Notes under the pieces: generated by a model
What the model saw: only the letters and a program-made list of their open reading frames with translations
Told to the model about the DNA's origin: nothing
Database searches by the model: none
Part shown: positions 9,538 to 30,115 of the stretch, piece by piece
Layout of the letters: each line of letters begins with the position of its first letter
Numbering within the stretch: position 1 is the stretch's first letter
Program-made: the position numbers and the translations under genes
NCBI RefSeq assembly: GCF_011045215.1
Contig: NZ_CP049201.1
Source: Escherichia coli
GTDB taxonomy: Bacteria; Pseudomonadota; Gammaproteobacteria; Enterobacterales; Enterobacteriaceae
Strand: one strand, 5' to 3'
DNA: 64,000 nt

Positions 9538-9571
9538 GAAATTTTTCCGAAAAAAAACGCCGGTGCGGCGT

Positions 9572-10757: not shown

Positions 10758-10760
10758 AAG

Positions 10761-11075: not shown

Positions 11076-11084
11076 TGCCGTAAT

Positions 11085-11895: not shown

Positions 11896-12130
11896 TTATC
11901 AAATCCTCATCAAAAACCACCTCCGACATGAAACGCCTGAAAAACGGGATTTTCCGGCGTTATGGTGTCGTATGTTTATTATAGTTAATTTAAATAAAAA
12001 CATAATGTTACATGCAAGAAGTACCGACATGCTTTTTCCCTGAAAAATTTTCATAAATAGTGAAAATCTGCGCGTCTGCCGCCCCGCGGTGTTTCTGATT
12101 CTGGAAAGGACCCGTGAAAATTGGGGCGAT
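11896..12130 (-). other. cos site of island (cosQ-cosN-cosB)
   Basis: Minus strand ACGGGTCCTTTCC..GAAACACCGC GGGGCGGCAGAC GCGCAG..CTATTTATGAAAATTTTTCAGG about 190 nt upstream of terS start, matching lambda cos geometry. Confidence 0.6.
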
Positions 12131-12194
12131 CACCACCGTTCCGGATACAAAAAAAATCGCGAGACCTTGCCAGCCTCGCGAACGTTCATTTCAG

Positions 12195-12620: not shown

Positions 12621-12634
12621 AAATCACCACAAAA

Positions 12635-12964
12635 TTATTGCCCTAAAGGCTGCACGGAAATACCGGAACCAACAAAAGACGACACTTTTTTCTCGAACGT
12701 GTCCGCTGTATCAGGCCAGTTAATTTCATCGATATTAAAAACCCCGCACTTATAAACCTGTGCGCGGTTTTTTGTGGCCGTGTTAATGTCCGATATGGTC
12801 AGATACACCGCCTTACCGGGTGTACCGTCCCACTCAACCATCAGGCCCGCGCCGTTCTGCATCAGCGGAGTTCTCGCTTTAATTTCTCCGGCACTGGCAA
12901 AACAGGCCAGCGTGCTGACCAGTTCCTGCGTGCCGGAAAGGAATTGCGTGTAAGGTGTTGGCAT
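12635..12964 (-). CDS. Head decoration protein (lambda gpD-like), divergent second copy
   Basis: 109 aa; TPLM...GLMVEWDG...VYKCGVF...WPD...GSGISV pattern matches gpD. Confidence 0.75.
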   Translation of the reverse strand: MPTPYTQFLSGTQELVSTLACFASAGEIKARTPLMQNGAGLMVEWDGTPGKAVYLTISDINTATKNRAQVYKCGVFNIDEINWPDTADTFEKKVSSFVGSGISVQPLGQ

Positions 12965-12974
12965 ACGATCCCCT

Positions 12975-14030
12975 TTATTTCACTTCGACGGTAACAAAGC
13001 GACCAATATCCACGGGTACTGGCTGCGGGGCGCTGTGCGTCTGCACGTATTCAATCGCCGGATCGCCCGGTACGATATAATTTTTCGGGTAGTACATCCC
13101 CTCAGAAAATCCCTCGCGTGCCGCGTCCTGATCCATGATGGCACCATAAGCAACAAGGCCTTTATTTTCGGTATTGCCGAAAACCATCATGTTTTGTTTC
13201 AGGAAATATTGCTGCTGCCCGTTTTCGTCGTCATAACGACCGGAATAAACCACGATCGCCACATCACCGAGATACCCCTTGAAGCTGACAACGCCGCCCA
13301 AATCTTTTAGCGCAAGTTCAAGTGACGAGTTTGAACCGCGACGCGTGTCCATTAGTTCGCGGAATCGACGGAACGAGCGCAAAATACGCCAGGCTTCGCC
13401 ACCCATGACGATAATATTTACCGTACCTTCGGAAAAATCAGCGTAAGCCTCAATGTCGCTTATCGGATCAAACGTTTCGGCATCCTGTTTTGACCATTCT
13501 TTCCCGCCAGCCTGCGTAATATGATTGGTTTCGGGTAATCCCCAGTCAATTTCATAACGCTCAATGCCTTCGCCCTCAATAACGTTACGGCCTGTTGTGA
13601 TGGCATTGACCGCCAGCCATTCAACACGCGCTTTGATGGCAGCAAGCTGTTTTTTCTGGCTGTCGTGAACCATTTTTACGCGGCGTAGTGCCGGGGAAGA
13701 CTGACCATTGCCGATCTGTTCTCCAGGCATGCGCATGATTGTTTTGGTGGGATCAATAACGTGTTTGGGCTTCATATAACCCGGCGTGAACGTGTTCGTT
13801 GTGAAACCTTTGTCACGCATAACCTGGCTGCCTGACATTGGAGAACAAAACGGACTCATGACCACGTTTTCAATATCCAGCGTATCAAGTGCAATATCTC
13901 TGGTGCTGAAAGTAGCGACGTTCGGAAAGAACAACGTAGTAAAGAGTGGATTAAATTTAAATTCCGGCACATCTTCGCGCCCGATATTTTTCAGTAGCGT
14001 TGGTGTGCTTACCAGTTGCGGCGCTGTCAT
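12975..14030 (-). CDS. Major capsid protein (lambda gpE-like), divergent second copy
   Basis: 351 aa; TPGYMKPKH, NITQAGGKEWSKQDAETFDP, DTRRGSNSSLELALKDLG motifs shared with lambda E and the prophage E at 23439-24467. Confidence 0.85.
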   Translation of the reverse strand: MTAPQLVSTPTLLKNIGREDVPEFKFNPLFTTLFFPNVATFSTRDIALDTLDIENVVMSPFCSPMSGSQVMRDKGFTTNTFTPGYMKPKHVIDPTKTIMRMPGEQIGNGQSSPALRRVKMVHDSQKKQLAAIKARVEWLAVNAITTGRNVIEGEGIERYEIDWGLPETNHITQAGGKEWSKQDAETFDPISDIEAYADFSEGTVNIIVMGGEAWRILRSFRRFRELMDTRRGSNSSLELALKDLGGVVSFKGYLGDVAIVVYSGRYDDENGQQQYFLKQNMMVFGNTENKGLVAYGAIMDQDAAREGFSEGMYYPKNYIVPGDPAIEYVQTHSAPQPVPVDIGRFVTVEVK

Positions 14031-14236
14031 TACTCACCCCCATGAGGCTGATTCATACCAAGCGCAGCGCGTAAATGGCTGCGTACCATCCAGCCGACTG
14101 ACGGCTTCACCAGGCACAACGGATCAAGGCCGATTTTTTTTCCTGCCTCTGCGTTCTCCTCAAAGCGCGCATTAAGTGCGGCGATAATATCGGGGCTGAT
14201 GTACACGGATACACCGCCCGGCTTCTGTGTTCCCAT
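14030..14236 (-). CDS. Hypothetical protein
   Basis: Small ORF immediately upstream of island capsid gene; no family recognised. Confidence 0.3.
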   Translation of the reverse strand: MGTQKPGGVSVYISPDIIAALNARFEENAEAGKKIGLDPLCLVKPSVGWMVRSHLRAALGMNQPHGGE

Positions 14237-14494
14237 AAATGAGATTCCTCTTTGACTAAAAAACAAACATAACGAAAAGTCATGTCATGATTTTAATTAT
14301 CGTTGCACTTTTTGCAATATAATTGACTATTGTTGCGAATAATGAAATCATTATGTCGTGGTTTTAATCCTTGTACCACAGAGTTGTTTAGCATTAATCA
14401 CGTTAGCGGCGTGAAATCCCCCGGAACCTCATCCCGGGGGATTTTTTTGCGCACAAAAAAGCCGGGAAAAATCCCGGCTTCTGTCACTCGTTGC

Positions 14495-14917
14495 TTAAAA
14501 CGGTATTTCATCCCCGTACGGATCATCATTTCCCGCCTGTTGTTTTGCTCTGCTCAGTGCATCAGTAGCCTGCCCCTGTTGGCCTTTTTTGCCGCCCGGT
14601 CGCGCCGTTCTGGCACTGATTACACTGTCTGCGATAACCTGCCAGCTCTGCCGCGTTTCGCCGTTCTGGCCTGTCCACTGGCTTACCTGCATGTTACCCG
14701 CCACGCTCACCAGTTCGCCTTTGCGGTGTTTTGCCAGTGCGTCGGCCTGTCTGCCAAACGCCAGGACGGATAACCACATCGTCGCCGTTCCGTCATCTGC
14801 CTGGCTGCACGGCAGGGGAACCGCCATACTCGCCATCGCCATTTGTGTTCCCTTGCTGGTGGTCTTTAACTGCGGGTCAGCCACCAGCCGCCCGTAAGCT
14901 GCTATCTGTGCTGTCAT
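14495..14917 (-). CDS. ssb: Single-stranded DNA-binding protein
   Basis: 140 aa with Gly/Gln-rich linker and acidic C-terminal tip ...DDPYGDEIPF typical of SSB. Confidence 0.7.
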   Translation of the reverse strand: MTAQIAAYGRLVADPQLKTTSKGTQMAMASMAVPLPCSQADDGTATMWLSVLAFGRQADALAKHRKGELVSVAGNMQVSQWTGQNGETRQSWQVIADSVISARTARPGGKKGQQGQATDALSRAKQQAGNDDPYGDEIPF

Positions 14918-15165
14918 GCTGTCTGCTCTCCGGTTTTAACGTTGATGGTTGTCACCTGTTCCGCTTCGGCAATCTCCCGCTCTGTCAGCGTGGCAAAGTT
15001 TGCCGCCGCTGTGGTCATGAATGCGCTTATCAGTTCGGGATGTGCTTTTGCGTATCCTTCTCCGGCATGGCGGTCTATTGTTCTGATTGCCACCTTTAAG
15101 GCGTGCTCTGTCATGTCTAACGCTTTATATTTTGGCGCTGTCTTATCTCTGGTTTTTTTGGTCAT
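14914..15165 (-). CDS. Hypothetical protein
   Basis: 83 aa ORF between replication gene/iterons and ssb. Confidence 0.4.
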   Translation of the reverse strand: MTKKTRDKTAPKYKALDMTEHALKVAIRTIDRHAGEGYAKAHPELISAFMTTAAANFATLTEREIAEAEQVTTINVKTGEQTA

Positions 15166-15188
15166 TTCTCACTATTCCCCACTTTTTC

Positions 15189-15367
15189 GCCTCACTTTTT
15201 AAGCTCCCAACATGATTTCCAACCTTGTTTTTTTGTGATTCTAATATGTTGTTTTTCAATGTGTTTTTTATTCCTCACTTTTGAGCCTATATACAGGTTG
15301 AAAAGTGAGGGGCGCGGTTGCTTTTTGTTCAGTTTCTGCTATCCCCTCACTTTTGTGCCTCACTTTT
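15189..15367. repeat. Iteron cluster (putative island replication origin)
   Basis: CCTCACTTTT at 15189, 15273, 15345, 15358 plus inverted copy AAAAGTGAGG at 15301, directly 3' of helicase-primase gene. Confidence 0.55.
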
Positions 15368-16782
15368 TACAGTGGGCGCACATCATCACCGTCAATAGTG
15401 ATAACGCCGTCTCTTTCCAGCTTGTACAGCCAGCGCCGAAAGTTTTTCATCTCATACCCCAGCTTTTTCATATCATCACGCAATAACGGGATAGTGCATT
15501 TATCGCCGCGCTGTGTGCGTGAACGGATACAGCCCCATAGCGCGGCGTGATTCTCCGTCTTGTTTCCGGCCTCCTCAATGCGCTCCAGTTCAACAGGTGG
15601 GCGCGGCTTATCCACTACCACCAGCGACGTGATTAACTCCTTGTCAGCGTCGATAAAAAGCTCCACCACGCGTAAATCGTATGCGGCCTCTTTCAGTTCC
15701 TCTGCGTCCTTCATTTTGGTGCAGGAGATAACCAGGGCTTCACTGTCTGCACCTTCCCGGCGAATACGGTATTCAGCGTCCAGAGATGCACGAAATGCAC
15801 TGGAACCACGCGCCCCCTTTGTTTCATCCTTGCCGGAATGGTGAACCACCAGTACCGTGGCCCCTGTGCGTCGTTTCAGTTCGTCACATCCACGGATAAA
15901 CGCCCCCATATCCCGCGCGTCATTTTCATCATTACCGCCAAAACACCGCGCCAGCGTATCCAGAATAATCATGCGTACCGGTTTACCCGTTTCCCTTTCA
16001 ACCTGGCGGGAAGCGATGACCATTTCATCAATATCAAACTGTGCTGCCGGAAAAATCGGGCGGTTTACCAGGTACAGATTTTTCACCCGTTCATCATTAA
16101 CGATTTCCCATGCTTTGATACGACGAGGGACACCAATGCCACCTTCACCGACGACATACATCACCGAACCATGCGCCACCCTGCGGCCTCCCCAGTGGCG
16201 ACCCGTGGCAACATGACACGCCCAGGAACACGCGAGGAATGATTTATAGGAACCGCTCGCGCCGTATGTGCTGCACAACGAATTAGCCGGAATCACGCCC
16301 TTAACGACATAATCAAGCTGTGTGTCGTACCCTGCAGATCCAATACTCATTGGTAGCGTGGTTTTTCGCTGGTCGTTTTTTTCTTCCTCCGGTATCTCTC
16401 CGGACCGTCTTTTCTGGCGCTCTCGTTCCAGATATTCGCGCCACCCCTCCCGCTTCTGGCTGTGCATTCCCTCAGGGTAATAATTCGCATCCCGTACACC
16501 TGCCGCTGCCAGCTTTTGCCCGATGGCATTAATATTTGACGGCTTGATGTGGCCTGCCTTGTACAGCCGGACACAATAGCGACCATCGTCGATAATTTTC
16601 AGGTCAGCCAGTTCGTCAAGATGGCTGTCTCCAAGCCATACAGGCGGAACATTGTCGCCAGCAAGTCGCCCGTCCTGCTCCTGCCATTGTTTCGCGTGCG
16701 CCCAGGCATCACTACCCGCAAAAATAATGACTTCGGTCATTTTGTCGTGCGGCTGTTTTTTTAAGTTCGGTGCCAGTTTCAT
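15367..16782 (-). CDS. Replication protein, RepA-like helicase/primase (AAA_25-type P-loop NTPase)
   Basis: 471 aa; Walker A GASGSYKS, Walker B RMIILDTLARCF, ...VLVVHHSGKDE...; N-terminal extra domain. Confidence 0.7.
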   Translation of the reverse strand: MKLAPNLKKQPHDKMTEVIIFAGSDAWAHAKQWQEQDGRLAGDNVPPVWLGDSHLDELADLKIIDDGRYCVRLYKAGHIKPSNINAIGQKLAAAGVRDANYYPEGMHSQKREGWREYLERERQKRRSGEIPEEEKNDQRKTTLPMSIGSAGYDTQLDYVVKGVIPANSLCSTYGASGSYKSFLACSWACHVATGRHWGGRRVAHGSVMYVVGEGGIGVPRRIKAWEIVNDERVKNLYLVNRPIFPAAQFDIDEMVIASRQVERETGKPVRMIILDTLARCFGGNDENDARDMGAFIRGCDELKRRTGATVLVVHHSGKDETKGARGSSAFRASLDAEYRIRREGADSEALVISCTKMKDAEELKEAAYDLRVVELFIDADKELITSLVVVDKPRPPVELERIEEAGNKTENHAALWGCIRSRTQRGDKCTIPLLRDDMKKLGYEMKNFRRWLYKLERDGVITIDGDDVRPL

Positions 16783-17078
16783 TTTTTACCCCTGAATGCG
16801 TTAATCATGTTTTTCATTTTCTGAATGTTCGCCCGTGCCTTTGCGTTGCTGGTGGGCTGTTTGCATGGCGTGGCCTGTATCAGTGAAAAATCACGCCGGA
16901 ACTGATAAACAGGCATCACGCAGTCATAGCCGTACCCATCACGGCGGTAAGTAACGCACCGTCCCGCCACGCTTTTAATCGTTACCGTGCCGCCGTAGTT
17001 ATCCCGGAAAATATCGCCGGGGCGGATTTCAGGCCGAGCGGGGCCGCTGGCAGTAAAGCCAGAAATTTTCTGTTTCAT
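16779..17078 (-). CDS. Hypothetical protein
   Basis: 99 aa ORF, start overlaps helicase-primase gene. Confidence 0.4.
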   Translation of the reverse strand: MKQKISGFTASGPARPEIRPGDIFRDNYGGTVTIKSVAGRCVTYRRDGYGYDCVMPVYQFRRDFSLIQATPCKQPTSNAKARANIQKMKNMINAFRGKK

Positions 17079-17094
17079 GGTTTTTATTCCTCTG

Positions 17095-17294
17095 CGCGGG
17101 TCTTGTTGTGTATTTCCATAACCGCGTTTAATTCATCAATAACCGGGGTTAACAGAGTGCTGAAAGCAGAAAATAAATCCCCCCCCCTGTTCGGCATGAA
17201 CTTCGGTTAATTTAATTAATACCGCTTTCATTTCCAGTGCCCGGTTTAATGCATTCTCAGAATGAATAAGAACATCGAAAGGGATTTTATCCAT
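17095..17294 (-). pseudogene. Small ORF interrupted at G9 homopolymer (frameshift or phase-variable)
   Basis: ATG at 17294 reads MDKIPFDVLIHSENALNRALEMKAVLIKLTEVHAEQGGG then poor frame; with G8 it continues ...DLFSAFSTLLTPVIDELNAVMEIHNKTRAEE to a stop 5 nt before next gene. Confidence 0.35.
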
Positions 17295-17753
17295 GGCTTA
17301 CATCCTCCGGGAATTTTCTTCTGTAACGCGCCTCTGCAACATATTCCGCATAGTCCGACGCAATATTGAGAATCTCCACACCCTCTGACCTGTAGCCACT
17401 GGTACTGATAAGAAAAAATGCGGCTTTCATCATGTCGGCAACGCATAACAACGCATCGCCTGTATGTTCCGGTGCGCCATCAAATTCCTGTTTCAGGGCA
17501 TTAAAACGATCATCACGCATAACCCCCCCCCATTTTCACAATCAGTAATCAGGATGGCTTTAGCCTCATTCAGTGCCATATCAGCACTAAATTGCATAAC
17601 AGCCAGTGAGTGAGGAACGAAATCCCCGGCATATTCTGTTTCGCTGGTGGCGTGCTTATGTGCCCTGTCCGCGATAACAGAAATATCAATCAGCGCGTGC
17701 ATCAGCGTTTTGATGGCTTCGGCGGCTGCGTCCTGACGGGTGTTATTGCACAT
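17287..17753 (-). pseudogene. Gene split by G9 homopolymer (86-aa + 77-aa ORFs; fuse with G10)
   Basis: ORF 17493-17753 ends ...CENGGGLCVMIVLMP; one extra G in the tract at 17523-17531 gives ...GGGVMRDDRFNALKQEF... continuous with ORF 17287-17520. Confidence 0.4.
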
Positions 17754-17949
17754 GGCGCACCTCCTGACGAATACGGGCGGCGAATACCATCACGCAGCCA
17801 TCAGGAGATTGCTGACGCGCTTCCTGTTCGTTGGTGGCCTCAATGGTAATCACGCGCGGTTGTGCCGTGCTCAGGGCGATAAAACGCCAGATGTATTTAT
17901 TCAGGTTGTGCGAGTCCCGCCCTTGCGGGTGTGTGGTATGATTTAACAT
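17743..17949 (-). CDS. Small protein, first gene of leftward island operon (Cro-like position)
   Basis: 68 codons (MLNHTTHPQGRD...RHVQ) with RBS GAGGT; divergent from RHH gene across operator region; not in ORF track as a separate ORF. Confidence 0.4.
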   Translation of the reverse strand: MLNHTTHPQGRDSHNLNKYIWRFIALSTAQPRVITIEATNEQEARQQSPDGCVMVFAARIRQEVRHVQ

Positions 17950-18088
17950 AGCTACCTCGATAATCTTGCTATCGTTGGTGGTTAGACGCCCTGCATGTGT
18001 ACCACCACTGCGGGGCGTTGCGTTTTTTGATGTGCACGTGTTAAGGTGTACACCTAACGAACCAAAACATAACGCCATAGGTGTACAC
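17950..18088. promoter_or_regulatory. Divergent promoter/operator region of island
   Basis: Perfect palindrome GGTGTACACC at 18045-18054 and GGTGTACAC at 18080-18088 just before the RHH start; CACGTG at 18033. Confidence 0.5.
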
Positions 18089-18283
18089 ATGTCAACAGTT
18101 ATTAAGCGCGATAAAAAACAAAAAGGCACAGGAAAGGCCCCACCATTCCATATGCGTATAGTCCCTGAATTGAAGGAGCAGTTTGATAACGAAGCCAGTA
18201 ACGATGGAGTAAGTCTTGCCAACTGGCTTAAAGAGTTAGGGCGCAAAGAACTGCTACGGCGCGGAATTGAACCAAAGGGATAA
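18089..18283 (+). CDS. Ribbon-helix-helix-like DNA-binding protein (putative island repressor or antitoxin)
   Basis: 64 aa from MSTVIKRDKKQKG...; basic N-terminus, start right after operator palindromes. Confidence 0.45.
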   Translation: MSTVIKRDKKQKGTGKAPPFHMRIVPELKEQFDNEASNDGVSLANWLKELGRKELLRRGIEPKG

Positions 18284-18292
18284 CTATCACTA

Positions 18293-18823
18293 ATGTCGCA
18301 ACCAGAGGAGTTGCGACTCCGAAGATTACATAGGAAATTAATGATTATGGGATTCGTCATTTTCATTGCGATCGTAATTTTATCCATTTACGTTCTTACC
18401 AAATTATTTATTTCAGAAAATTCACACGACAAAATTAGAGCCGAGGCATCCAGAAGAATTGCACAAGAAGAGGCCGAACGGGCTAAGTTGTATGAAGAGA
18501 GAAAGGAATCATCTGATAATCCTGTTAATAAACAAAAACGAATAACAACACACGAAGATCATTTTTATATGGATATTCATGGTGGTCACAAATATATATG
18601 TGTTGATGCTAAGTTAGTTTTTGAATATGCAAATTTAAAACACAACTATTTTCTTCACGCCTCTCACTATTTCCCTGAGTTAGAGTATGTTTATGGAAAA
18701 AACGAACATGGGAAAATAGTTAGAGTAGATTTGTACGATAAAAAAATTCAAGCTATTAACCCCGATACTGGCGAAAAAATACCTGGTGTGAGACGTTATC
18801 TACGACAGCACAAGATAAAATAG
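18293..18823 (+). CDS. Hypothetical membrane-anchored protein (AT-rich cargo gene)
   Basis: 176 aa; N-terminal TM helix MIMGFVIFIAIVILSIYVLTKLF; markedly AT-rich; followed by hairpin+T-run terminators. Confidence 0.45.
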   Translation: MSQPEELRLRRLHRKLMIMGFVIFIAIVILSIYVLTKLFISENSHDKIRAEASRRIAQEEAERAKLYEERKESSDNPVNKQKRITTHEDHFYMDIHGGHKYICVDAKLVFEYANLKHNYFLHASHYFPELEYVYGKNEHGKIVRVDLYDKKIQAINPDTGEKIPGVRRYLRQHKIK

Positions 18824-19238
18824 CCCACCGGAATTTTTTTCCGGTTACGCTTTGCCCACCAGCCGCAAATGTGGCATTGTTGGCTATGCTCATGCGTTGG
18901 GGATAACGCGCAATTAGTGTTGAAGGGCCACCGTAGCGGGTGGCCTTTGTTTTGCCTGTTATCCGGCAATTGTGGCGCTTCGCCACACGGTTGATATAAT
19001 CCTCCTGCACAGATTCATTTTTTGCGCAGCAGGTTAATTGTTCGCAAGGGCGCTCCGGCAACTGGGCGCTTTTTGTTTTTACCCACCAGCACAATAAAAA
19101 TCTTCATTTTCCATTTTTGCAAAATTTCATGCTTTCCGGACGACTGGCCATATGTCATTTTTTAGCAGAAGATTTTGCCTTGCTGGTGGGTAGCTTCCCG
19201 GTTAACACGATGTACCGTATAATCAGCACCGCACGCGG

Positions 19239-19820
19239 TTACTGAATACGCTCACCAAAGTAAAACTCAGGCTGATATTCACGTATCAGCCTTTTTTCTT
19301 CTTCCTCCAGCTCACGCTTTTTGCGCTTACATGCCTGTAGTTCCCTCCCCTTCTCGCTGGCACTTATCTGGTATTGCTCTTTGCGACGGGAAAAATCCTG
19401 TAATGCGCCCCACGGGATACCATAAGCCCCCGTTTTTCTGATACCCGGTATCACATTTCTGAATACCCAGTTACTGAAACGATGGGCGAACGTGCCAGGA
19501 GTAGCAGCTTTTCGACTTCTGGCAATCAGCTTGTAAAAACCAGATTCAGAAACGACGCTATGATTTGGATTTCCGCGAATACCGTAAGTTAAAGTTACGG
19601 TATTACTTTCATCATCATCCAGAGCTTGCAACGCCATGCGTGAATTAGTCAGTTCCAGCGCAGCGCAGACATCCTTTGCAACAAACCACGGATCGCCGTT
19701 CAGATACACCACGCGAACGTTCACACTATCAAAGCGCAGAACGACCAGATCACGAATATCACAGAATTTTTTCACTGGACGTGCGTCACCCTTGCCAGTC
19801 ACGGCAATATTTTTATTCAT
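19239..19820 (-). CDS. Bro-N domain protein (putative antirepressor)
   Basis: 193 aa; N-terminal ...GDPWFVAKDVCAALEL... Bro-N-like; coiled-coil C-terminus. Confidence 0.55.
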   Translation of the reverse strand: MNKNIAVTGKGDARPVKKFCDIRDLVVLRFDSVNVRVVYLNGDPWFVAKDVCAALELTNSRMALQALDDDESNTVTLTYGIRGNPNHSVVSESGFYKLIARSRKAATPGTFAHRFSNWVFRNVIPGIRKTGAYGIPWGALQDFSRRKEQYQISASEKGRELQACKRKKRELEEEEKRLIREYQPEFYFGERIQ

Positions 19821-19870
19821 CGCTTTTTACCTCACATACAAAAAACCCCGCATTGCGCGGGGTATATCAA

Positions 19871-20080
19871 TCATTGACGATATTCATTAGCTTGTTTTCG
19901 TTGTCTTTCCAGCCACGATGCAACATCATCACGATGCCATGCGTTGCGTCGCCCAATCTTAAAGGGGCGTGGAAATTTATTTTTTTCATCATTCATGAAA
20001 GCGTAAAATGCACTCATTGCACCGTAGCGAAGCTCTGCCATCACGTCTTTGGTAAATAGAATATTGCCGTTAGTGCTCAT
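19871..20080 (-). CDS. AlpA-family transcriptional regulator/excisionase-like
   Basis: 69 aa, ...RRNAWHRDDVASWLE... typical AlpA/Xis HTH; immediately downstream of P4-type int. Confidence 0.75.
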   Translation of the reverse strand: MSTNGNILFTKDVMAELRYGAMSAFYAFMNDEKNKFPRPFKIGRRNAWHRDDVASWLERQRKQANEYRQ

Positions 20081-20086
20081 ATTGCC

Positions 20087-21319
20087 TCACATATTCACTA
20101 CTTTTAGCCCCTGATGACCACCAGAACGACGGATAATTCCCTTTCTGGCATCATCAACAAAATCACCAATCCATTGCATCATGATCTTACGTTGCTCAAA
20201 ATATTTTGAGCGATTATAAATATCACGAATAGCATCGCCGCTTTTATGGGCTAATGCTGCCTCAATAACATCTGGGTTAAACCCTTCTTCGTTGAGTAAC
20301 GTACTCCACATAGCCCGGAATCCGTGGGCAGTTGCAATACCATAAAATTGTCCATCTTTGAAACACTTATGACGCAACACGCTTGATATAGCTTTCCCCG
20401 GATTCTTTGGAGAAAAAAATATATAGCTACCACATTTTATTTTATTCATTTCATTTAAAATATCCACGGCTTGCCGTGAAAGCGGAACTACGTGTTCACG
20501 TCCACACTTCATTCTTTCAGGGGGAATTGTCCAGATACAATTTTCTAAATCAATTTCCTCCCATTTTGCCTCCCTTGCTTCACATGGTCGTACCATAGTG
20601 AAAATCTGGAACAAAAGAGAGCATCTTATAGAGATATTACTTGTAGTATCCCACCAGTTCAAAAATTCTGATAACAGTTCAACTGGTAATGCCTTTAATG
20701 GGGTATGTTTTTTTGTTGCAAATGCATTTCTTATTGTTGATAGCGGGTTATTTTTAATTACTCCAGAGTTAACACAGTAATTCATTATTTCATTAATTTT
20801 TGAAATAATTTTATCCAATACAGAATTACGATCAGAAAATTGATTAAGCAATGGTATGACCACAGGCGCGGTCATATCATGTATGTACACATTTCCAAAT
20901 ACAGGGATTATATGTCTGTTCAATAACTCTTCTATTGTCTGTAAAGTCGACAGTCGCAAATCACCTTTTTTCTTAAAATTAAACCATTCAATTGCAATAG
21001 CACCAAACGTCTGTAAGTGCTTTCTTTTAGCCTCGAGTCGTTTTTCTGCCCGGTATGATAACGGATCTATATCCCGTGCCAACAATCTGCGCAGATTATC
21101 GCGTTCTTCTCTGGCTTCAACCAGCGTGAAATCGGGGTATCGCCCTATAGTGTATGTTTGCCGCTTCTTCGTAAAAGGTTGTACATAACGAAAACGCCAC
21201 GATTTACTACCGGCTTTTGACACATAAAGCAAAAGCCCAAACCCATCATATAGAGCGTAATCTTTCTCTCGTGGCCTGGCGCTTTTTACCTCTGATGCAG
21301 TAAGAGGCTTCACCGACAT
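20087..21319 (-). CDS. Tyrosine integrase, P4/CP4-57 type
   Basis: N-terminus MSVKPLTASEVKSARPREKDYALYDGFGLLLYVSKAGSKSWRFRY typical of P4-like integrases; C-terminal catalytic domain ...AHGFRAMWSTLLNE... Confidence 0.9.
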   Translation of the reverse strand: MSVKPLTASEVKSARPREKDYALYDGFGLLLYVSKAGSKSWRFRYVQPFTKKRQTYTIGRYPDFTLVEAREERDNLRRLLARDIDPLSYRAEKRLEAKRKHLQTFGAIAIEWFNFKKKGDLRLSTLQTIEELLNRHIIPVFGNVYIHDMTAPVVIPLLNQFSDRNSVLDKIISKINEIMNYCVNSGVIKNNPLSTIRNAFATKKHTPLKALPVELLSEFLNWWDTTSNISIRCSLLFQIFTMVRPCEAREAKWEEIDLENCIWTIPPERMKCGREHVVPLSRQAVDILNEMNKIKCGSYIFFSPKNPGKAISSVLRHKCFKDGQFYGIATAHGFRAMWSTLLNEEGFNPDVIEAALAHKSGDAIRDIYNRSKYFEQRKIMMQWIGDFVDDARKGIIRRSGGHQGLKVVNM

Positions 21320-21433
21320 ACAAGCACTCCAATACAAATTTTTTCTAGTCCATGCGCTGGTTCCTTTTGCCAGAATACTGGCGATAAAAAAGCGAAAAAC
21401 AAGGAACAATGCACACAATGAAAAAACCGCAAC

Positions 21434-21898
21434 TTATTGAATAAGAAGAAAAACAAAAAGAAACGGTAACGAAAGATAATGATTGCATAGTCCAAAAGAG
21501 ACACGGAAAACGATGTAGTCGTCCAGCAGTCGGTCGAAGGTATCCACCTCAGCATCAATAAAAACCGCCGGATCAACGTTATCCAGCCCGAACGTGGCTC
21601 CATCAATCCAGTCAGATAAATCCATTGCCAGACAGCGGGCAAATATCTGCGGTTTTGGCACGTTTTCCGTCTTTCCGGCCCGATCAGTCACCACAAACAG
21701 ATCGCATTTCAGCGTGACCCGTGTCTGCCCGTCGGCAAACTGAGCCTTGTCCCAGCCGGGTACATCCACAAACACGGCAGGCGTCACCAGTTGCGTCACT
21801 TTTTCCGGGTACTCATCGGCATCTTCCACCCAGGGAATTTGTTTCAGACTGTCAATCACTGCCTGATGCCAGGTTCCCATCATCAATGGTTCCATCAT
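21434..21898 (-). CDS. Putative tail-completion/head-tail adaptor-like protein, C-terminus atypical at island junction
   Basis: 154 aa after Z-like gene; last about 20 residues (LCNHYLSLPFLFVFLLIQ) are low-complexity and read into the A-rich junction next to island int. Confidence 0.4.
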   Translation of the reverse strand: MMEPLMMGTWHQAVIDSLKQIPWVEDADEYPEKVTQLVTPAVFVDVPGWDKAQFADGQTRVTLKCDLFVVTDRAGKTENVPKPQIFARCLAMDLSDWIDGATFGLDNVDPAVFIDAEVDTFDRLLDDYIVFRVSFGLCNHYLSLPFLFVFLLIQ

Positions 21899-22617
21899 TC
21901 CATCCCCTTAAATACCCGGAATTTCAGTTCATGCTCAAAATTTTTCAGGATCAGTGCTTCCGCATCAGGGAAAACAAAATCCTCTATACGGTTCAGCATG
22001 GCTTCATAAATATCAATTTCCGCTTCGCGCACCCTTCGTCGTCCGGATGCCTGCCGGACCAGTACCGTCTTACGTCGTGAAATGCGTCCGCGCCGGTTTT
22101 CAGACTCAAACTCATTAACAAAAGCCTCGTCACCTGACCAGGTGGTGACCGGTATTGCCTCCCCGGCGGGCTTAAAACGTATCTCCGGCGCTTTCCTGCG
22201 ACGGGAAGCCGGTGCAAAACGCCCCCGTTCATCACGCAGCTGATGGCGTTCACCGCGTCGCCCCCCACTGATGCGTCCGCGCAGATCACGCACTTTGATG
22301 GCGTTCAGGCCGAACCACACCTTTACCTCATCAAACTCATCGCCATTTCGACGAATGATAAAAGCATTCAGGACACGTTTTTTGATCATTTTCTGGCTGC
22401 GTGGCGCAACCTGTTTTTTAAACTCTGCCATGGCCTTCATCCGCAGTGCGGACGCGGCTCTTTTCAGCGCCACGCCCCAGGCTTTACGGATCTGGCTTTT
22501 TGAACCACCCAGTTTAGCGATAATTTTCAGCACATCATCCTCGTCAATATCGACGACGAGGTTTCGTGCCAGCCGTCGCTGCCGGACAGTGCTTCGTTCA
22601 TGCTCTCTGACTGTCAT
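21895..22617 (-). CDS. Head-tail joining/virion morphogenesis protein (gpZ-like position)
   Basis: About 240 aa basic protein following FII-like gene. Confidence 0.45.
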   Translation of the reverse strand: MTVREHERSTVRQRRLARNLVVDIDEDDVLKIIAKLGGSKSQIRKAWGVALKRAASALRMKAMAEFKKQVAPRSQKMIKKRVLNAFIIRRNGDEFDEVKVWFGLNAIKVRDLRGRISGGRRGERHQLRDERGRFAPASRRRKAPEIRFKPAGEAIPVTTWSGDEAFVNEFESENRRGRISRRKTVLVRQASGRRRVREAEIDIYEAMLNRIEDFVFPDAEALILKNFEHELKFRVFKGME

Positions 22618-23005
22618 AACGTTTACTCGGTCGGACAGGGGCGGCGGGTGTACTTCTTCCGGGTTCTCCCCGCGCAAGAGTAATGGTAATCACACCATGA
22701 CCCGCAGTGCCTGACTCATCCCAGCCAGGATCGACCACCTGGTAGGGTTCGCCGTGGATCATGACCCTGTCATATTTTTTCAGTCCGGCAACCCATGCGC
22801 TCCGGGTAAATAACACCGGTGCAGTATCACGAATTTCGCCGCTGCCAGTGTTCATCCCGGTGTTATCTGCCGGGGCATCAAAAACAGCACGGATTTTTCT
22901 TTCCGTGCCGCCCGGATATATGCTGATTTCCGTCCCCATCGTATCCAGGATGATGTCATCCGCATCACTCATGGCCTGATCGAACAGATTATCGGACATC
23001 ATCAC
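22598..23005 (-). CDS. Head-tail connector protein (lambda FII-like)
   Basis: N-terminus MMMSDNLFDQA... resembles gpFII; follows FI-like gene. Confidence 0.55.
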   Translation of the reverse strand: MMMSDNLFDQAMSDADDIILDTMGTEISIYPGGTERKIRAVFDAPADNTGMNTGSGEIRDTAPVLFTRSAWVAGLKKYDRVMIHGEPYQVVDPGWDESGTAGHGVITITLARGEPGRSTPAAPVRPSKRYDSQRA

Positions 23006-23388
23006 TCCCGGATTTTTTCTGCCAGACCATCCGCCAGCAACGCAGGAACTGTGGCTTCATTAACCAGCACAACACTGGAGGCCCGGGCGAACATCAACAT
23101 TTTGCCCGTCACCGCATCACGGGACGGCATATGTGCCGTTTTCAGCATGCGCACCCGAACGAGTCCCCGCTCAGAATACACCTCATTACGGGCATCCCCT
23201 CCGGATGCATCACGCTGTTCATCATGCACATCATCCTGTTCTGTCCCTTCCCCATCGAATCCGGCGGCCTCCTCTTCCCATTCCGCCAGGCGCTGTTCAA
23301 GATCGGCTTTTGAACCTGAAATATCTGCTTCACGCCCCAGAATCTCTGCCAGCTCCTGCAGGCGTTCAGTCATCTGCTCTTTTGTCAT
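23002..23388 (-). CDS. DNA packaging protein (lambda FI-like)
   Basis: Start MTKEQMTERLQELAE...; acidic linker; position after E as in lambda. Confidence 0.6.
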   Translation of the reverse strand: MTKEQMTERLQELAEILGREADISGSKADLEQRLAEWEEEAAGFDGEGTEQDDVHDEQRDASGGDARNEVYSERGLVRVRMLKTAHMPSRDAVTGKMLMFARASSVVLVNEATVPALLADGLAEKIRE

Positions 23389-23438
23389 CACATTTCTCCC
23401 GTGCGATAAAGAAAAAGGCGGGAATATCCCGCCTGACC

Positions 23439-24467
23439 TTATTTCACCTGAACCACCACAAACGCGTCCGGATCCGGCAACACCATCAACGGCGCAGACT
23501 GCGTCATGGTATATTCGCACCCCGGGTCCCCCACCTCTAACCAGTGTTTCGGATAACGAATTGCAGAGGTGATCCCTTCACTCAGCGCCTGGTTATCCTG
23601 GATTGCGCCATAACAACGGACACCCTCCACCTGAGTGTTTCCAAGAATCAGTGTGCCTTCCGGCAGATAACGCTGCTCATCCCCGTTTTCATCAACATAC
23701 GTTGTTTTCGCCACCATGATGGCCAGATCACCGTAATAACCTTTAAAAGAAACCACGGAACCCAGATCTTTCAGCGCGGTTTCCAGTTCAGATTTTGAGC
23801 CACGGCGGGTATCCAGTTTTTCACGAAACAGCTTAAAACCGTTCAGCATACGCCAGACAGTACCGTCCATAATCGCAATATTGATGGTACCGGAAGCAAA
23901 ATCGCAGTACGCATCCAGATCATGCGTCGGATCAAAGGTGTCAGCATTCTGTTTTGACCATTCGCGTCCCCCTGCCTGCGTTATGTTATTGGCGGCAGAA
24001 CGTCCAAAATCCACTTCCACCGTCTCAAACTGTTCACCGCTCATGGTGTACTTACCCTGCAGAACAGCGCTGACCGCCTGCATTTCTTCCACCTGCACAA
24101 TCGCCTGCTCTTCCTGTTTCAGGTTATCAGTCAGAATACGCAGGCGACGGTAGGCCGGGTCATTAAGACGGGCCGGATCTTCCCCCGGAAGACGCTCCAC
24201 CGCCTGCTGATAATCCAGCCGGTGTTTTGGTTTAACATAGCCGGGGCGTAACACGCGGGTTTCACCACCACGACTGCGCAGTACCTTACCTGACACAACC
24301 GGAGACACATATGCCGCAACCGGTGTTTTTCCGGTGATTTTATCCAGCATCACTTCCTGAGTATGGAAAGTGACCGTACGACGAAAAAACAGCTCCAGAA
24401 ACAGCGCACGGAATTTCACTTTCTGCTCGGTGTAGCCGAGCAACTGACGCGTGGTAAATAACCCCAT
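23439..24467 (-). CDS. Major capsid protein (lambda gpE-like)
   Basis: ...AAYVSPVVSGKVLRSRGG...PGYVKPKH...VQVEEMQAVSAVLQGKYTMSGE...DTRRGSKSELETALKDLG very close to lambda E as recalled. Confidence 0.9.
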   Translation of the reverse strand: MGLFTTRQLLGYTEQKVKFRALFLELFFRRTVTFHTQEVMLDKITGKTPVAAYVSPVVSGKVLRSRGGETRVLRPGYVKPKHRLDYQQAVERLPGEDPARLNDPAYRRLRILTDNLKQEEQAIVQVEEMQAVSAVLQGKYTMSGEQFETVEVDFGRSAANNITQAGGREWSKQNADTFDPTHDLDAYCDFASGTINIAIMDGTVWRMLNGFKLFREKLDTRRGSKSELETALKDLGSVVSFKGYYGDLAIMVAKTTYVDENGDEQRYLPEGTLILGNTQVEGVRCYGAIQDNQALSEGITSAIRYPKHWLEVGDPGCEYTMTQSAPLMVLPDPDAFVVVQVK

Positions 24468-24537
24468 AATTGACTTTCCTTTAAAAACACAAACGAACCG
24501 CATCACGACCCGTTTTTTTCAGTTAATCACTTCACCA

Positions 24538-24903
24538 TCAGGCGTGGCTGATGGCACTTCCCACAAACGCGTTGGCTTTTTTCACCGCATCCACCGAATC
24601 CGGCCAGACCAGCGATTCGGTGGCAAACGTACCGCTTTTGTAGTACGTCAGTGTGGGCTCGGTCCCGGCCAGCGCCAGTGCCAGTACCCCCACAGCCGTT
24701 CCGGCTTTCTGACCATCCCATGCCACCAGTTTTCCGCTGGCGTCATCCAGCATCAGTGGCGTCAGTGAAGGCGTGGCAACACTGATACCGCTGGTACCTG
24801 TTGCGGTATACACCGGATCGCTTCCGGCAAAAATGCGCCCGTCCGCACGCTTTTCTGTGGTGGTTTTAATCATTTTCTCAGTCTCCTGATTTATCTGAAT
24901 CAC
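24538..24903 (-). CDS. Head decoration protein (lambda gpD-like)
   Basis: ...TPLMLDDASGKLVAWDG...YYKSGTFATESLVWPD...GSAISHA matches gpD. Confidence 0.85.
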   Translation of the reverse strand: MIQINQETEKMIKTTTEKRADGRIFAGSDPVYTATGTSGISVATPSLTPLMLDDASGKLVAWDGQKAGTAVGVLALALAGTEPTLTYYKSGTFATESLVWPDSVDAVKKANAFVGSAISHA

Positions 24904-24913
24904 GGATCCCCGC

Positions 24914-26395
24914 TTACGGCATACTCATCAGCAGTTCTTCTTCCCCGTTCCCGGCAGTTCCGCCACCGGAAACGGCACTGGCGGCATGCTGTGCCATGAA
25001 GCGCTCAAAAAGTGTTACCTGTGACGGTTGCGATACTGATGGCGCAGCTGCCAGCAGTGTTTTCGCCTGGTCCACTGTCATTCCCGGCTGTTCAGCCAGC
25101 GCCTGTGCCAGTTTTTCGCGTCCTTTTGCTTCCGGAAGTGCCATTATCTGCTCGCCGGTACTTGCCGCACCGGTTGCCGGTGCCGCTGCCAGTAACATTT
25201 TCGCCTGTTCCACCGTCATTCCCGGCTGTTCAGCCAGCGTCCGTGCCAGTTGTTCACGCCCTTTTGCTTCCGGAAGTGCCACAATCTGATCGCCAGTACT
25301 GTCAGTACCGGCAACCGGTGCCGCTGCCAGTAACGTTTTCGCCTGCTCAACTGACATTCCCTGCTGACCTGCCAGCATCTGCGCCAGTTTTTCGCGTCCT
25401 TTCGCCTCCTGACAATTCAGGATCCCCATCACGCGCTGATTTTCCTGGGACACCGCTTCAGCAACGGTGAGATTTTTTGTTGTCATCGTATTCTCCTGTG
25501 TAACAGAGTCGTTCAGAGCAGAAACCATTACATCAACGGCATCTGCAGCATTAATCAGTTGATCAGCCAGGCCTGTATCAATGCCTGCCTGACCGTCATA
25601 AACGGCAGCCTCGGTATTCATCACCACCTCTGAACTCAGCCCCGTATAAAGTGCCACCTTGTCGACAAACATCCGGCGGGCCTCATCAATACGGCGCTGA
25701 AAATCCGCACGCACACCTGTCGGCAACGCCTGAATACTGTTGCCGTCAACCTTGTGCTGCCCGGAGTAAATCAGCGTGATATCCACCCCTTCCTGTGCCA
25801 GTTGTTTCTCATAACTGATGTGCGCCATCATCACACCAATCGAACCAATTTTTGCCGTCTGCGTGACCAGCCGACGCGTACAGGCTGCCGCCAGCAACAT
25901 GGCGGCTGAACAGGCCATGTCATTACACAGCGCCCACACGGGCTTCTGTTCCCGCAGACGGTAAATCATGTCAGCACAGTCAAACGCCCCGGCAGCCTGA
26001 CCGCCAGGACTGTCGATATCCAGCAAAATACCGCGCACATCCGGATCATTCACCGCCAGCTGAAGACGGGCGGTAAGACCGTCATAGCCTGTCATGCCAG
26101 AGTAAGGCCTCAGGGTACCCATTTTATGTACCAGCGTGCCGCTCACCGGCAGAATGGCGATGCCATTTTTCACCTGATAGCATTTTTCAGGACGCCGGCC
26201 ACCAGACATATAGTCCGCCACCGCCAGTTGCATACCGTCGGCATCAAGCTGAACATCCAGTTGCGGAACGGAAAGACTGCCCGCCCCCATCTCCTTACCC
26301 AGCGCGCAAAAGAAAACCCGCGCATAGGCGGGTTCCAGTAAAAGCGGTTCATTAAATGCCATGGCGGCAATATGCGATAAATTACGACGCATCAC
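24914..26395 (-). CDS. Head maturation protease/scaffold (lambda gpC-Nu3-like, S49 peptidase family)
   Basis: 493 aa; SppA/ClpP-like core ...GILLDIDSPGGQAAG...; C-terminal repeated scaffold-like segment. Confidence 0.85.
   Translation of the reverse strand: MMRRNLSHIAAMAFNEPLLLEPAYARVFFCALGKEMGAGSLSVPQLDVQLDADGMQLAVADYMSGGRRPEKCYQVKNGIAILPVSGTLVHKMGTLRPYSGMTGYDGLTARLQLAVNDPDVRGILLDIDSPGGQAAGAFDCADMIYRLREQKPVWALCNDMACSAAMLLAAACTRRLVTQTAKIGSIGVMMAHISYEKQLAQEGVDITLIYSGQHKVDGNSIQALPTGVRADFQRRIDEARRMFVDKVALYTGLSSEVVMNTEAAVYDGQAGIDTGLADQLINAADAVDVMVSALNDSVTQENTMTTKNLTVAEAVSQENQRVMGILNCQEAKGREKLAQMLAGQQGMSVEQAKTLLAAAPVAGTDSTGDQIVALPEAKGREQLARTLAEQPGMTVEQAKMLLAAAPATGAASTGEQIMALPEAKGREKLAQALAEQPGMTVDQAKTLLAAAPSVSQPSQVTLFERFMAQHAASAVSGGGTAGNGEEELLMSMP
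25030..25390 (-). repeat. Three in-frame tandem repeats of about 108 bp within the protease/scaffold gene
   Basis: Protein repeats ...GMTVEQAKxLLAAAP...TGxQIxALPEAKGREKLAxxLAEQP... x3; DNA repeats read directly. Confidence 0.6.
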
Positions 26396-28162: not shown

Positions 28163-30115
28163 TTATCCTCCACTCAGTGCAGCCGCGATCTCTTCCATGC
28201 TCATATCATCCTCATCCTGCTCATCTCTTCGTGCCCTCGCCAGCGCTTCAAGGTCCAGTTGCCACCGCTGTACCGAAACGCGCAGGGCGGCATAAGCATA
28301 TACCAGGCAGTCGAGGGCTTCGTTGCGTCGCCCTTTTTTATCCCACAGCAGTTTCACCCTGCCGTTAACCACCTTTTCCACCAGTTCTTCCGCTACGATT
28401 TGACGCGCCTCTTCTTCCGAAAAAATGTCCGGGTTATCCGGAAAACGGAAGGTATACGGGGCTGCTTCACTTGCAGAAACCACCGGCAGGGCAAAACGCG
28501 CATACAGCATTTCCTTGACGGTATCGGAGCCCACCTCACACAAAAACACACCACGCTGGTTGCGCTTTTTGGGCATGGTGATCACCGGCTTGCCATACAC
28601 CGATGCCCCTTTTATGGGAAGCACAAAAAAAGTGCCGTGTTTCCTGGAACGCTGATACACAATGTCCTGGTCGATACCACCGGTATCCCAGCAGACGCGG
28701 GAAATGGAAATTTCAGTACCGTCAGCATGGCGGTATTTTTTCCGGATCACCGCATCAACACGTTTAAGGGTGTCCTCGTCCTCCGGTCGCCCCATGATAA
28801 TTTGCTTGTCAATCAGAAAGGCTTCTTCGCCGGGAGCCCAGCCCCAGACATAAATTTCATAGCGATCTTTCTGGGAGTCGATCCCGGCAGTCAGGTAAAC
28901 CACCCGCAGGGGAACCTGCGCATCATAGTGGCAGACTTTTTCCAGCAACAACTCAAAGCTCAGTTTTTCTGCCACGGCCTCTTCATAGGGCTCCCCGAGC
29001 GTGGTGTTAATAAACGTCTTGACACCGTTCGGATCCTTCAGCGCATCCAGCCAGTCATAAACAATCTGTACCCAGGTGGTGAACGGACTGTACGCTGTCC
29101 ACACGTGGTACGTGATTGAGCGCGGTGGCGGCATCTCCTCATCACCGGCGCTGTAAAATGCCAGGCCGTCACGCGTCCACATCCCGGTATTGTCACAAAT
29201 CCAGCGCCCGTCGGTCTGGTCAAGCTCCGACTGCCGGATCACACAGCCATTATGTTCACACAGGTAATACACCGTTTCCGGTTTACCCTTCTCCCATTTC
29301 AGGCCAAAGGTTGTCGCATCATCGCCAAACTTAAGATACTGGGCTTCACCACAATGAGGGCATGGCACATAAAACCGCATAAAATGTGCAGATTCGTTCG
29401 CGGCTTTTTCAATCTGACAGGAACCTTTAATTTTTGGCGTTGAGCCGCGTATGGATTTAGGCCATACCGAACCTTCGATACGTTTATCGCCAAGCAGCGT
29501 TGGCGAGCCTTCCTTTTCCACATCCGGTTCAAACGAGGAGAGTTCGTCATAGCAGACCACATCCACTGATTTTTCACGGTAGTTTTTAGCAGCGGCACCC
29601 CCCAGGCACCAGAACCCCACGCCGGAGGAGAAACGCTTCAGGGTGAGTGTGTTGTCACGATGTTTTCTGCCCAGCCATGGCGATAACGCTTTAAGGCTGG
29701 GGACATCCCGGAGCGTTGCTTCCACATGCGCTTTCATAAAATCTTCAGCTGCGGAATCTGTCGGCTGGAAGAGCAGGCTGTTACGGGATTTATGCTCAAT
29801 AAAATACCCGACCACGCCCAGCAGCATTTTGGTGTAACCCACACGCGCCGATTTAATCAGATTAACAGTGCGGATCCTGTCGTGCCCCATGCTGTTCATA
29901 ATGGCGACCTGGAACGGCAGTGTTTTCCATTCCCCATCACCGTATGACGATTCTTTAGGCAGATAATAATTTTGATCAGCCCATTCAACTGCCGTCATCG
30001 GTACAACCCTGACCAGAGGCTGCAGCGCAACTGAAACAGCAGCCATCATATTATTCAGCTGTAGTTCGGATATATTCATCGAGTAACTCCGGCAATTTAT
30101 CCCCTGTCCGCGCAC
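28163..30115 (-). CDS. Terminase large subunit (lambda gpA-like)
   Basis: 650 aa; ATPase and nuclease domains, lambda-A length, overlaps terS end. Confidence 0.92.
   Translation of the reverse strand: MRGQGINCRSYSMNISELQLNNMMAAVSVALQPLVRVVPMTAVEWADQNYYLPKESSYGDGEWKTLPFQVAIMNSMGHDRIRTVNLIKSARVGYTKMLLGVVGYFIEHKSRNSLLFQPTDSAAEDFMKAHVEATLRDVPSLKALSPWLGRKHRDNTLTLKRFSSGVGFWCLGGAAAKNYREKSVDVVCYDELSSFEPDVEKEGSPTLLGDKRIEGSVWPKSIRGSTPKIKGSCQIEKAANESAHFMRFYVPCPHCGEAQYLKFGDDATTFGLKWEKGKPETVYYLCEHNGCVIRQSELDQTDGRWICDNTGMWTRDGLAFYSAGDEEMPPPRSITYHVWTAYSPFTTWVQIVYDWLDALKDPNGVKTFINTTLGEPYEEAVAEKLSFELLLEKVCHYDAQVPLRVVYLTAGIDSQKDRYEIYVWGWAPGEEAFLIDKQIIMGRPEDEDTLKRVDAVIRKKYRHADGTEISISRVCWDTGGIDQDIVYQRSRKHGTFFVLPIKGASVYGKPVITMPKKRNQRGVFLCEVGSDTVKEMLYARFALPVVSASEAAPYTFRFPDNPDIFSEEEARQIVAEELVEKVVNGRVKLLWDKKGRRNEALDCLVYAYAALRVSVQRWQLDLEALARARRDEQDEDDMSMEEIAAALSGG

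Follow-up and report, generated by a model that had tools for sequence, protein, structure and literature searches.

How does a prophage structural gene come to end in an atypical hydrophobic tail and to abut an integrase gene? The question is raised by the minus-strand open reading frame (ORF) at 21434-21898 in a 64,000-nucleotide stretch of Escherichia coli contig NZ_CP049201.1 (hereafter the window), which terminates in ...VFRVSFGLCNHYLSLPFLFVFLLIQ* and adjoins int as a preliminary description of these letters had reported. BLAST comparison with an island-free prophage revealed a satellite island of the phage-inducible chromosomal island (PICI) type at 10349-21490, about 11.1 kb long, inside the tail-terminator gene of the surrounding prophage. 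The most probable explanation (roughly 0.85) is that this island is a PICI of the helper-embedded type (HE-PICI), integrated by tyrosine recombination into the terminator gene of a prophage with a lambda-type head and a P2-type tail; that the integration was carried out by the island's own integrase (Int) is strongly supported. HE-PICIs are satellites that reside in the late genes of their helper prophage and in the same orientation (Tommasini, Mageeney & Williams 2023, PMC10111431). The features on which this explanation rests are the following.

10349-21490, minus strand: satellite island, its main genes co-oriented with the helper late operon; missing from island-free prophages
21434-21898, minus strand: chimeric truncated tail-terminator ORF, 135 native plus 19 island-encoded residues
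10179-10348, minus strand: detached 3' part of the tail-terminator gene, made up of the stop and the 53 native codons before it (EQDIPVG...ESGG), overlapping the start of the baseplate V gene
10338-10348, no strand assigned: left att core repeat, TTCAAAAGAGA, at the int-distal junction (attR in the int-rightward orientation of PMC10111431)
21491-21501, no strand assigned: right att core repeat, TCCAAAAGAGA, at the int-proximal junction
21320-21490, minus strand: int-proximal arm of attP, from the core to the int ATG, A-rich on the plus strand and encoding the 19 foreign residues plus stop
20087-21319, minus strand: tyrosine integrase of 410 amino acids (Pfam Arm-DNA-bind_3, Phage_int_SAM_3, Phage_int_M, Phage_integrase)

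Boundaries and attachment sites of the island

A megablast search of positions 19000-24000 against 5,426 complete E. coli genomes showed a clean break at about 21490-21495: many prophages matched the right half only, two genomes the left half only, and two the whole query. In the island-free prophage of strain C5 (L001, NZ_CP010122), positions 2775-6012 aligned by BLAST to 7111-10348 of the window and positions 6001-9923 to 21490-25412, such that 12 bp (6001-6012) aligned to both island edges. The same comparison places the breakpoint in the chimeric ORF exactly after ...VFRVSF. The breakpoint and the direct repeats, for which the preliminary description had proposed an alignment of this kind, were thereby both located.

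The flanking repeat (TTCAAAAGAGA on the left, TCCAAAAGAGA on the right) is 11 bp long and imperfect, with 9 bp identical. The left junction reads GTCCTG-TTCAAAAGAGA-AAGCAAAC and the right junction GCATAG-TCCAAAAGAGA-CACGGAAA, and the empty site of L001 joins the two outer halves as GTCCTG-TTCAAAAGAGA-CACGGAAA. Removal of 10349-21501 in silico brings 10179-10348 and 21502-21898 together in frame and yields an ORF that encodes exactly the protein found in the island-free L001. The proposal that an island had inserted into this gene and replaced its native 3' end is thus borne out by the breakpoint, the repeats, the restored ORF and the 53 displaced codons. The displaced fragment itself was also recovered, although it lies at 10179-10348, to the left of the interval 10370-10760 in which it had been suggested.

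The attP reconstructed from the two junctions would read ...TTTGCTTT-CTCTTTTGG-ACTATGCAATC..., and the 9-bp block TCTCTTTTG is all that it shares with attB. This block falls within the codons V-S-F-E (GTC TCT TTT GAA), where the retained N-terminal part ends. The absence of a tRNA gene at the junction, pointed out beforehand, was confirmed: ARAGORN called none in the whole window, and a weak tRNA-like Rfam match (36 bits) lies far from the junction at 33902-33972 on the minus strand.

Identity of the split gene

No Pfam family covers the split gene, and PHROGs assigns it to phrog_1072, of unknown function. Homologues were collected by a word-indexed protein search, which returned 10, and by an exhaustive search of representatives, which returned 96; a Pfam scan of these homologues gave weak matches to Phage_tail_terminator in two members and to Mu Gp37 in one. 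A profile of 73 homologues matched the pyocin R2 collar in the Protein Data Bank (6u5f_A, 'Collar PA0615', E=4.4e-29). An AlphaFold (AF2) model with a confidence score (pLDDT) of 91.3 had as its best matches the pyocin R2 collar, the Mu terminator, lambda gpU, T5 p142 and T4 gp15, and the top Foldseek matches (6u5f, 6u5j, 9khy, 3fz2 and 8bcp) each had a probability of 1.00. The gene sits between a neck or tail-completion gene of phrog_27 and the baseplate V gene. Profile, fold and gene position together identify it as the terminator, or collar, of a contractile tail and the functional cognate of lambda U. Its upstream neighbour is intact:

21895-22677, minus strand: tail-completion or Neck1 protein (phrog_27) of the helper, directly upstream of the split gene

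The native C-terminal region is present in all eight full-length homologues, at 46-84% identity, and includes the near-invariant residues Q132, G137, G146, P148, H164, D167 and Y168 (L001 numbering). The hydrophobic tail of island type, whose occurrence in island-free homologues the preliminary description had named as evidence to the contrary, was found in none of the eight. The terminator loses this conserved 53-residue C-terminus and instead reads 19 codons of the attP arm, ending in ...GLCNHYLSLPFLFVFLLIQ, because the island brings no replacement sequence. In the model the lost C-terminal third comprises a strand, a helix and a strand, and the truncated terminator protein is probably inactive. 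RefSeq annotates the chimeric ORF as a gene in relatives, with the start at the ATG at 21883, and labels the 59-residue ORF that matches the displaced end in strain CFIAFB20180511 as hypothetical. The insertion also places 11 kb between the late promoter and the downstream baseplate and tail genes.

Gene content of the island

The gene set is that of a PICI, with the integrase followed on the same strand by an AlpA-like protein, a Bro-N protein, a replication zone and a late zone.

19871-20080, minus strand: AlpA-like helix-turn-helix protein, putative excisionase or regulator (Pfam Phage_AlpA, E=5e-4; phrog_66, E=2e-5)
19239-19820, minus strand: Bro-N family protein, annotated as anti-repressor (Pfam, PHROGs)
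14495-17078, minus strand: replication zone with DUF4222 protein, primase-helicase, a small ORF and single-stranded DNA-binding protein (SSB)
16779-17078, minus strand: DUF4222 protein, in the replication zone
15367-16782, minus strand: primase-helicase with AAA_25 domain, in the replication zone
14495-14917, minus strand: SSB, in the replication zone
11089-14266, minus strand: late zone with capsid, decoration, scaffold-like and small terminase genes
12975-14030, minus strand: lambda-E-type major capsid protein, 46% identical to that of the helper
12635-12964, minus strand: gpD-like decoration protein, in the late zone
12195-12620, minus strand: possible scaffold, with a match to the C-terminal part of phrog_53, a family of head-maturation proteases
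11311-11895, minus strand: Nu1-type small terminase, in the late zone

Two inverted copies of about 80 bp of helper sequence flank the island small terminase gene, at 12042-12121 (81% identity) and 11089-11163 (77%). Their source is helper positions 30703-30783, just upstream of the helper small terminase gene, presumably the cos region. The same inverted pair of cos-like copies occurs in the islands of strains TUM9812 and CFIAFB20180511, around a different gene: the Nu1-type segment 11161-12051 has no counterpart there, in islands otherwise 92-96% identical, and this difference has the look of a swapped late-zone module.

Neither a portal, a protease, a head-tail adaptor nor a large terminase was found in the island with Pfam or PHROGs, and none of the 20 island ORFs scanned against these collections matched Psu, Sid, Delta or Epsilon. 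Rfam at gathering thresholds detected no RNA within the island, neither C4 nor isrK nor any other. The island is absent from the deposited-phage collection, in which the Nu1 and cos segment alone matches phage 21 and lambdoid phages (about 73%).

The integrase start codon lies at 21319, 115 bp downstream of the chimeric ORF on the same strand, and the 410-residue product has the length of its homologues. Between the stop of the chimera at 21434 and the int ATG at 21319 we found neither a terminator-like nor a sigma-70-like match. The int promoter region that had been placed here thus gained no support from the scan, which used a crude sigma-70 consensus. A strong terminator-like hairpin follows the AlpA-like gene at 19845-19863. 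The int-proximal arm nearly coincides with the interval 21319-21500 singled out in the preliminary description. Within it, positions 21430-21443 (CAACTTATTGAATA) differ at one position from WATCAANNNNTTR on the minus strand and may represent a binding site for integration host factor (IHF). This arm is kept among islands whose integrases are 89-99% identical, and most relatives, down to 59% Int identity, show recognisable versions of the IHF-like region and of a GGGACTAGAAA-like block; one of these (L021) carries a perfect IHF consensus. A search for repeats on both arms returned short A-rich repeats only, with no convincing arm-type sites.

An integrase lineage with its own sites

The characterisation of the integrase as P4-type holds: besides its domains (Arm-DNA-bind_3, Phage_int_SAM_3 and Phage_integrase), it is 32% identical to P4 Int (198 bits). 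It is less close to the published HE-PICI integrase used for comparison (27%, 92 bits; E_Phage_cap_E_80, L004, taken from the list of Tommasini et al.), which itself scores 68 bits against P4 Int. The 120 closest relatives of the island integrase all score at most 119 bits against that HE-PICI integrase. It is 95% identical to the integrase of TUM9812, which lies in a different prophage gene.

In the assembly collection, 259 blocks contain an integrase 99% identical to that of the window (cluster representative P0001), and all ten non-redundant places among those listed are at the terminator-gene site, with varied replication modules. The same-site islands of ten other genomes (L005-L014) carry either an AAA_25 helicase or a D5_N/DUF5906 primase. 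Their int-proximal core is CTCTTTCGGA, as against CTCTTTTGGA in the window and in CFIAFB20180511; at this junction, about 170 bp upstream of int, CTCTTTCGGA differs by a synonymous T/C in the presumed crossover block.

Other members of the lineage occupy other genes. The 95%-identical integrase of E. coli TUM9812 and AREA_492 lies inside terL, the large terminase gene, with a repeat of its own (GTCCAGATGTG), and the TUM9812 island, 96% identical to that of the window, thus splits another site of its prophage with its own 11-bp repeat. A GpA_ATPase gene truncated at about residue 330 precedes the integrases from Salmonella (89% and 59% identical), Enterobacter (71%) and Klebsiella (70%). In Buttiauxella a 65%-identical integrase follows Nu1, with a stretch of about 1.1 kb without a called gene between them, and the junction aligns with the terL junctions (CATATCTGGA after TTT). 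Integrases 42-51% identical (P0035, P0040, P0041, P0056 and P0070; loci L022-L035) lie directly after, and co-oriented with, Pa193_gp24, a truncated Major_capside, Terminase_2, Phage_portal_2 and DUF6651, and PICI-like genes follow each of them. This suggests further uncatalogued helper-embedded sites, with 'embedded' read in these more distant members from gene order. A 39%-identical integrase in Rheinheimera is chromosomal.

The members found, with integrases 42-99% identical, span Escherichia, Salmonella, Klebsiella, Enterobacter, Buttiauxella, Yersinia and a cluster named for Raoultella, and they lie in or beside the GpA-type terL, the tail terminator, Major_capside, Pa193_gp24, DUF6651 and Phage_portal_2, or downstream of Terminase_2. 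On balance, these results favor an independent adoption of prophage late genes by a P4-like integrase lineage unrelated to the published HE-PICI clade, together with a recent switch from terL to the tail terminator. In the published account a peculiarity of the clade was offered as a speculative cause of the late-gene preference (PMC10111431). An unrelated, P4-like lineage with the same habit would instead point to selection on the satellite lifestyle.

A probable switch between the terL and terminator sites

In the helper prophage of the window, the position corresponding to the site of the terL-embedded relatives is unoccupied:

29097-29107, minus strand: unoccupied position in helper terL (28163-30082), equivalent to the terL site of the lineage, reading CACGTGTGGAC (codons H-V-W, about residue 326), not CACATCTGGAC (H-I-W)

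With int placed rightward, the junction cores in terL read CACATCTGGA or near variants and encode F-H-I-W, and the core in the terminator gene reads CTCTTTTGGA; the island arms flanking the core do not differ between the two sites. The two inferred attP sites, CACATCTGG for terL and CTCTTTTGG for the terminator gene, differ at three bases of the crossover region, each matching its own target. In each island the overlap is the same at either junction, which suggests that these integrations joined a matched attP and attB and did not arise as mismatched accidents. Overlap changes of this kind are familiar from lambda saf mutants and secondary-site integration, in which a changed attP overlap retargets a tyrosine integrase to the matching overlap. 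Here the three-base change (CACATCTGG to CTCTTTTGG) is natural and separates satellites whose integrases are 95% identical. By analogy with the saf mutants, the new overlap may have been captured in a past secondary-site integration followed by excision, and the terminator-gene site looks recently acquired.

One conceivable cause of the move, a loss of the terL core from the helper, would fit the reading CACGTGTGGAC in the window and in L001. It was ruled out by two helpers. In CFIAFB20180511 the island occupies the terminator gene and yet the helper terL keeps a perfect, empty CACATCTGGAC; in TUM9812 the terminator gene of the helper is intact and contains a near-identical site. The terL and terminator islands, three overlap bases apart, would offer a natural system for studying how tyrosine integrases gain targets. 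If the switch is real, the same pair could also be used to test whether selection on the satellite or a property of the clade lies behind the late-gene preference.

Comparison with known satellites

The published catalogue lists 491 elements distributed over 14 sites; these fall in nine genes, the cognates of lambda A (Terminase_1), B, C, E, H, J, L, T and V, and the catalogued integrases form a single clade, included at a cut-off of 400 bits against the integrase of the model element 11capE (PMC10111431). The arrangement that we describe is therefore already known as that of helper-embedded PICIs; the integrase lineage and the target gene are uncatalogued. The island lies inside a prophage late gene, splits it after codon 135 and supplies 19 unrelated codons, and its int, alpA, primase and capsid genes as well as the helper late genes are all on the minus strand. 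It shares with HE-PICIs the four-zone PICI layout of int, alpA, a Bro zone, primase and SSB, and a late zone (published size range about 10-17 kb). The resemblance is closest to 11capE (Eco567.11capE), which occupies the lambda-E-type capsid gene of prophage 50icd: both are about 11 kb with int-alpA, Bro, replication and late zones, both are co-oriented inside a helper late gene that they disrupt without replacement sequence, and both have capsid E and D genes of their own, a short block of identity (about 8-12 bp) and a cos-like sequence shared with the helper.

Two properties set the island apart from the published clade. Its integrase scores 92 bits, far below 400, and the motif TGTATTGC, doubled in that clade, is absent from the whole window on both strands; as published, the doubled attP motif, tgTGTATTGCantgTGTATTGCa, lies about 81 bp upstream of the core and about 132 bp downstream of it and is unique to HE-PICI attPs (PMC10111431). 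The target, a gpU-type tail terminator of a contractile tail, is likewise outside the nine published genes and 14 published sites. Neither the terminator gene nor a GpA-type terL is among the sites readable or named in the portion of the supplement available, which total 14. The att cores and the terms 'GpA_ATPase' and 'terminator' are absent from the text of that supplement, one file of which is incomplete, and the junction strings gave no match in its alignments, whose wrapped lines could have hidden one. Among the papers available to the literature search, no later one extends the catalogue. The tail terminator would thus extend the targets beyond the nine lambda cognates, and tail completion, not head assembly, would await excision of the satellite.

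Classical Gram-negative PICIs such as EcCICFT073 share the layout of int, alpA, Bro, primase and late module, a lambdoid cos helper and a packaging-redirection module (PMC10111431). They sit at chromosomal sites and act on the helper in trans only, whereas the present island lies inside its helper. With satellite P4 the island shares the general type of integrase (Arm-DNA-bind_3, 32%) and a size of about 11 kb.

Excision that restores a split gene has precedents in active lysogeny, or regulated gene integrity: the skin element in sigK and phi10403S in comK each disrupt a gene that precise excision restores at a fixed moment. The logic of splitting and restoring is the same here, although the split gene belongs to the helper phage, itself a mobile element, and presumably it is the satellite and not the cell that benefits. 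The concept of regulated gene integrity is also cited in the published account of HE-PICIs (PMC10111431).

A model for the induced cycle

In 11capE the composite excises and replicates, and the satellite then excises (PMC10111431). By analogy, the composite of helper and satellite in the present strain would excise after induction and then replicate. Helper late transcription would cross the head genes and the truncated terminator gene and continue as far as int and alpA, and the Int and AlpA proteins would excise the satellite and rebuild the terminator gene. The rebuilt attB would carry GTGTCTCTTTTGAACAGGAC (...TTCCGTGTCTCTTTTGAACAGGACATT...), and the freed attP would carry TTTGCTTTCTCTTTTGGACTATGC (...TTGTTTGCTTTCTCTTTTGGACTATGCAATC...). 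The satellite could then replicate with its own primase-helicase and be packaged through its cos-like site and Nu1-type small terminase, using its own capsid, decoration and scaffold-like proteins along with the portal, protease, large terminase and tails of the helper. Because excision would rebuild the terminator gene, helper tails would on this analogy be completed only once the satellite is free.

Several points weigh against this explanation or against parts of it. Only four of the 5426 complete E. coli genomes carry the island. The match to Phage_AlpA falls just short of the Pfam cut-off, such that the AlpA assignment is putative. The promoter scan was crude, and int could for that reason have a promoter of its own. 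The attP sequence is deduced from the junctions rather than directly seen, and the helper's left end lies outside the window. Excision, its timing, packaging and helper dependence all rest on analogy with a system whose type of integrase is 27% identical, and virions were not recovered from that 11capE model system (PMC10111431).

Alternative explanations

Some of the same observations might also result from a one-off, off-target insertion at a secondary site that inactivated the prophage and was then inherited vertically, with no regulatory role. Only a short stretch (9 bp) is identical, 7 of 10 core positions agree with the terL core, as could be expected of a pseudo-site, the carriers among complete genomes number four, and 28 off-target events were recorded for HE-PICIs (PMC10111431). 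We nevertheless consider this scenario unlikely. Mismatched overlaps should leave unlike junctions, whereas both junctions here share one overlap sequence. The site is used in at least ten non-redundant places (259 blocks with that integrase) with varied replication modules, and it is also filled in composites about 94-95% identical in DNA to the window. In CFIAFB20180511 the terL CACATCTGGAC stands empty while the island occupies the terminator gene, and the int, alpA, replication and capsid ORFs of the window are all open.

Assignment to another class of satellite, either P4-like or capsid-forming (cf-PICI), would be consistent with an integrase that is P4-type and nearer to P4 (32%, 198 bits) than to the published HE-PICI integrase, and with the island's own major capsid and decoration proteins. 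The integration target of satellite P4, however, is a tRNA-Leu gene, and P4 encodes Sid, Psu, Delta and Epsilon; no match to any of these four was recognised among the 20 island ORFs scanned. The target here is not a tRNA gene, no tRNA lies at the junction, and the helper has lambda-type head genes. A cf-PICI is expected to encode portal, protease, major capsid protein, adaptors and terminase. The island has capsid, decoration, scaffold-like and small terminase genes, and because it lacks a portal, protease, head-tail adaptor and large terminase it cannot assemble a full capsid in the manner of cf-PICIs. Membership in either class is very improbable. Still less credence, close to none, is due to the idea that the hydrophobic tail is a natural allele, a frameshift or an assembly artefact and that the integrase island is merely adjacent. 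It draws on the ORF being open and annotated by RefSeq in relatives, and nothing further was found in its favor. It is refuted by the full-length homologues with the native C-terminus and by the 53 codons that lie 11 kb away and return in frame upon removal of the island, and the 19 foreign residues derive from a conserved attP arm that elsewhere stands next to terL.

The helper prophage and related carriers

The right part of the window contains chromosomal genes (cls, kch and opp) and the helper's own integrase. In the helper of CFIAFB20180511 (L003, NZ_CM143727), the stx2 A and B genes are found at 34937-36178, with the subtype annotated as e/i/l/k; the helper of the window has no match to this stx2 segment. 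The composite in CFIAFB20180511 is thus Stx2-encoding, and satellites of this kind might, speculatively, affect the release of Shiga-toxin phage particles.

Three further observations concern the helper of the window. The tRNA-like match at 33902-33972 on the minus strand, which ARAGORN did not call, stands where related prophages have tRNA genes and may be a degenerate prophage tRNA. The S49 head protease/scaffold gene contains a 138-bp tandem repeat at 25060-25409 (2.5 copies, 83% matches), which would translate into a 46-residue protein repeat. In the early region, Rfam identified a sok antitoxin RNA at 39643-39817 on the minus strand (109 bits), a match that points to a type I toxin-antitoxin module (hok/sok) of the prophage.

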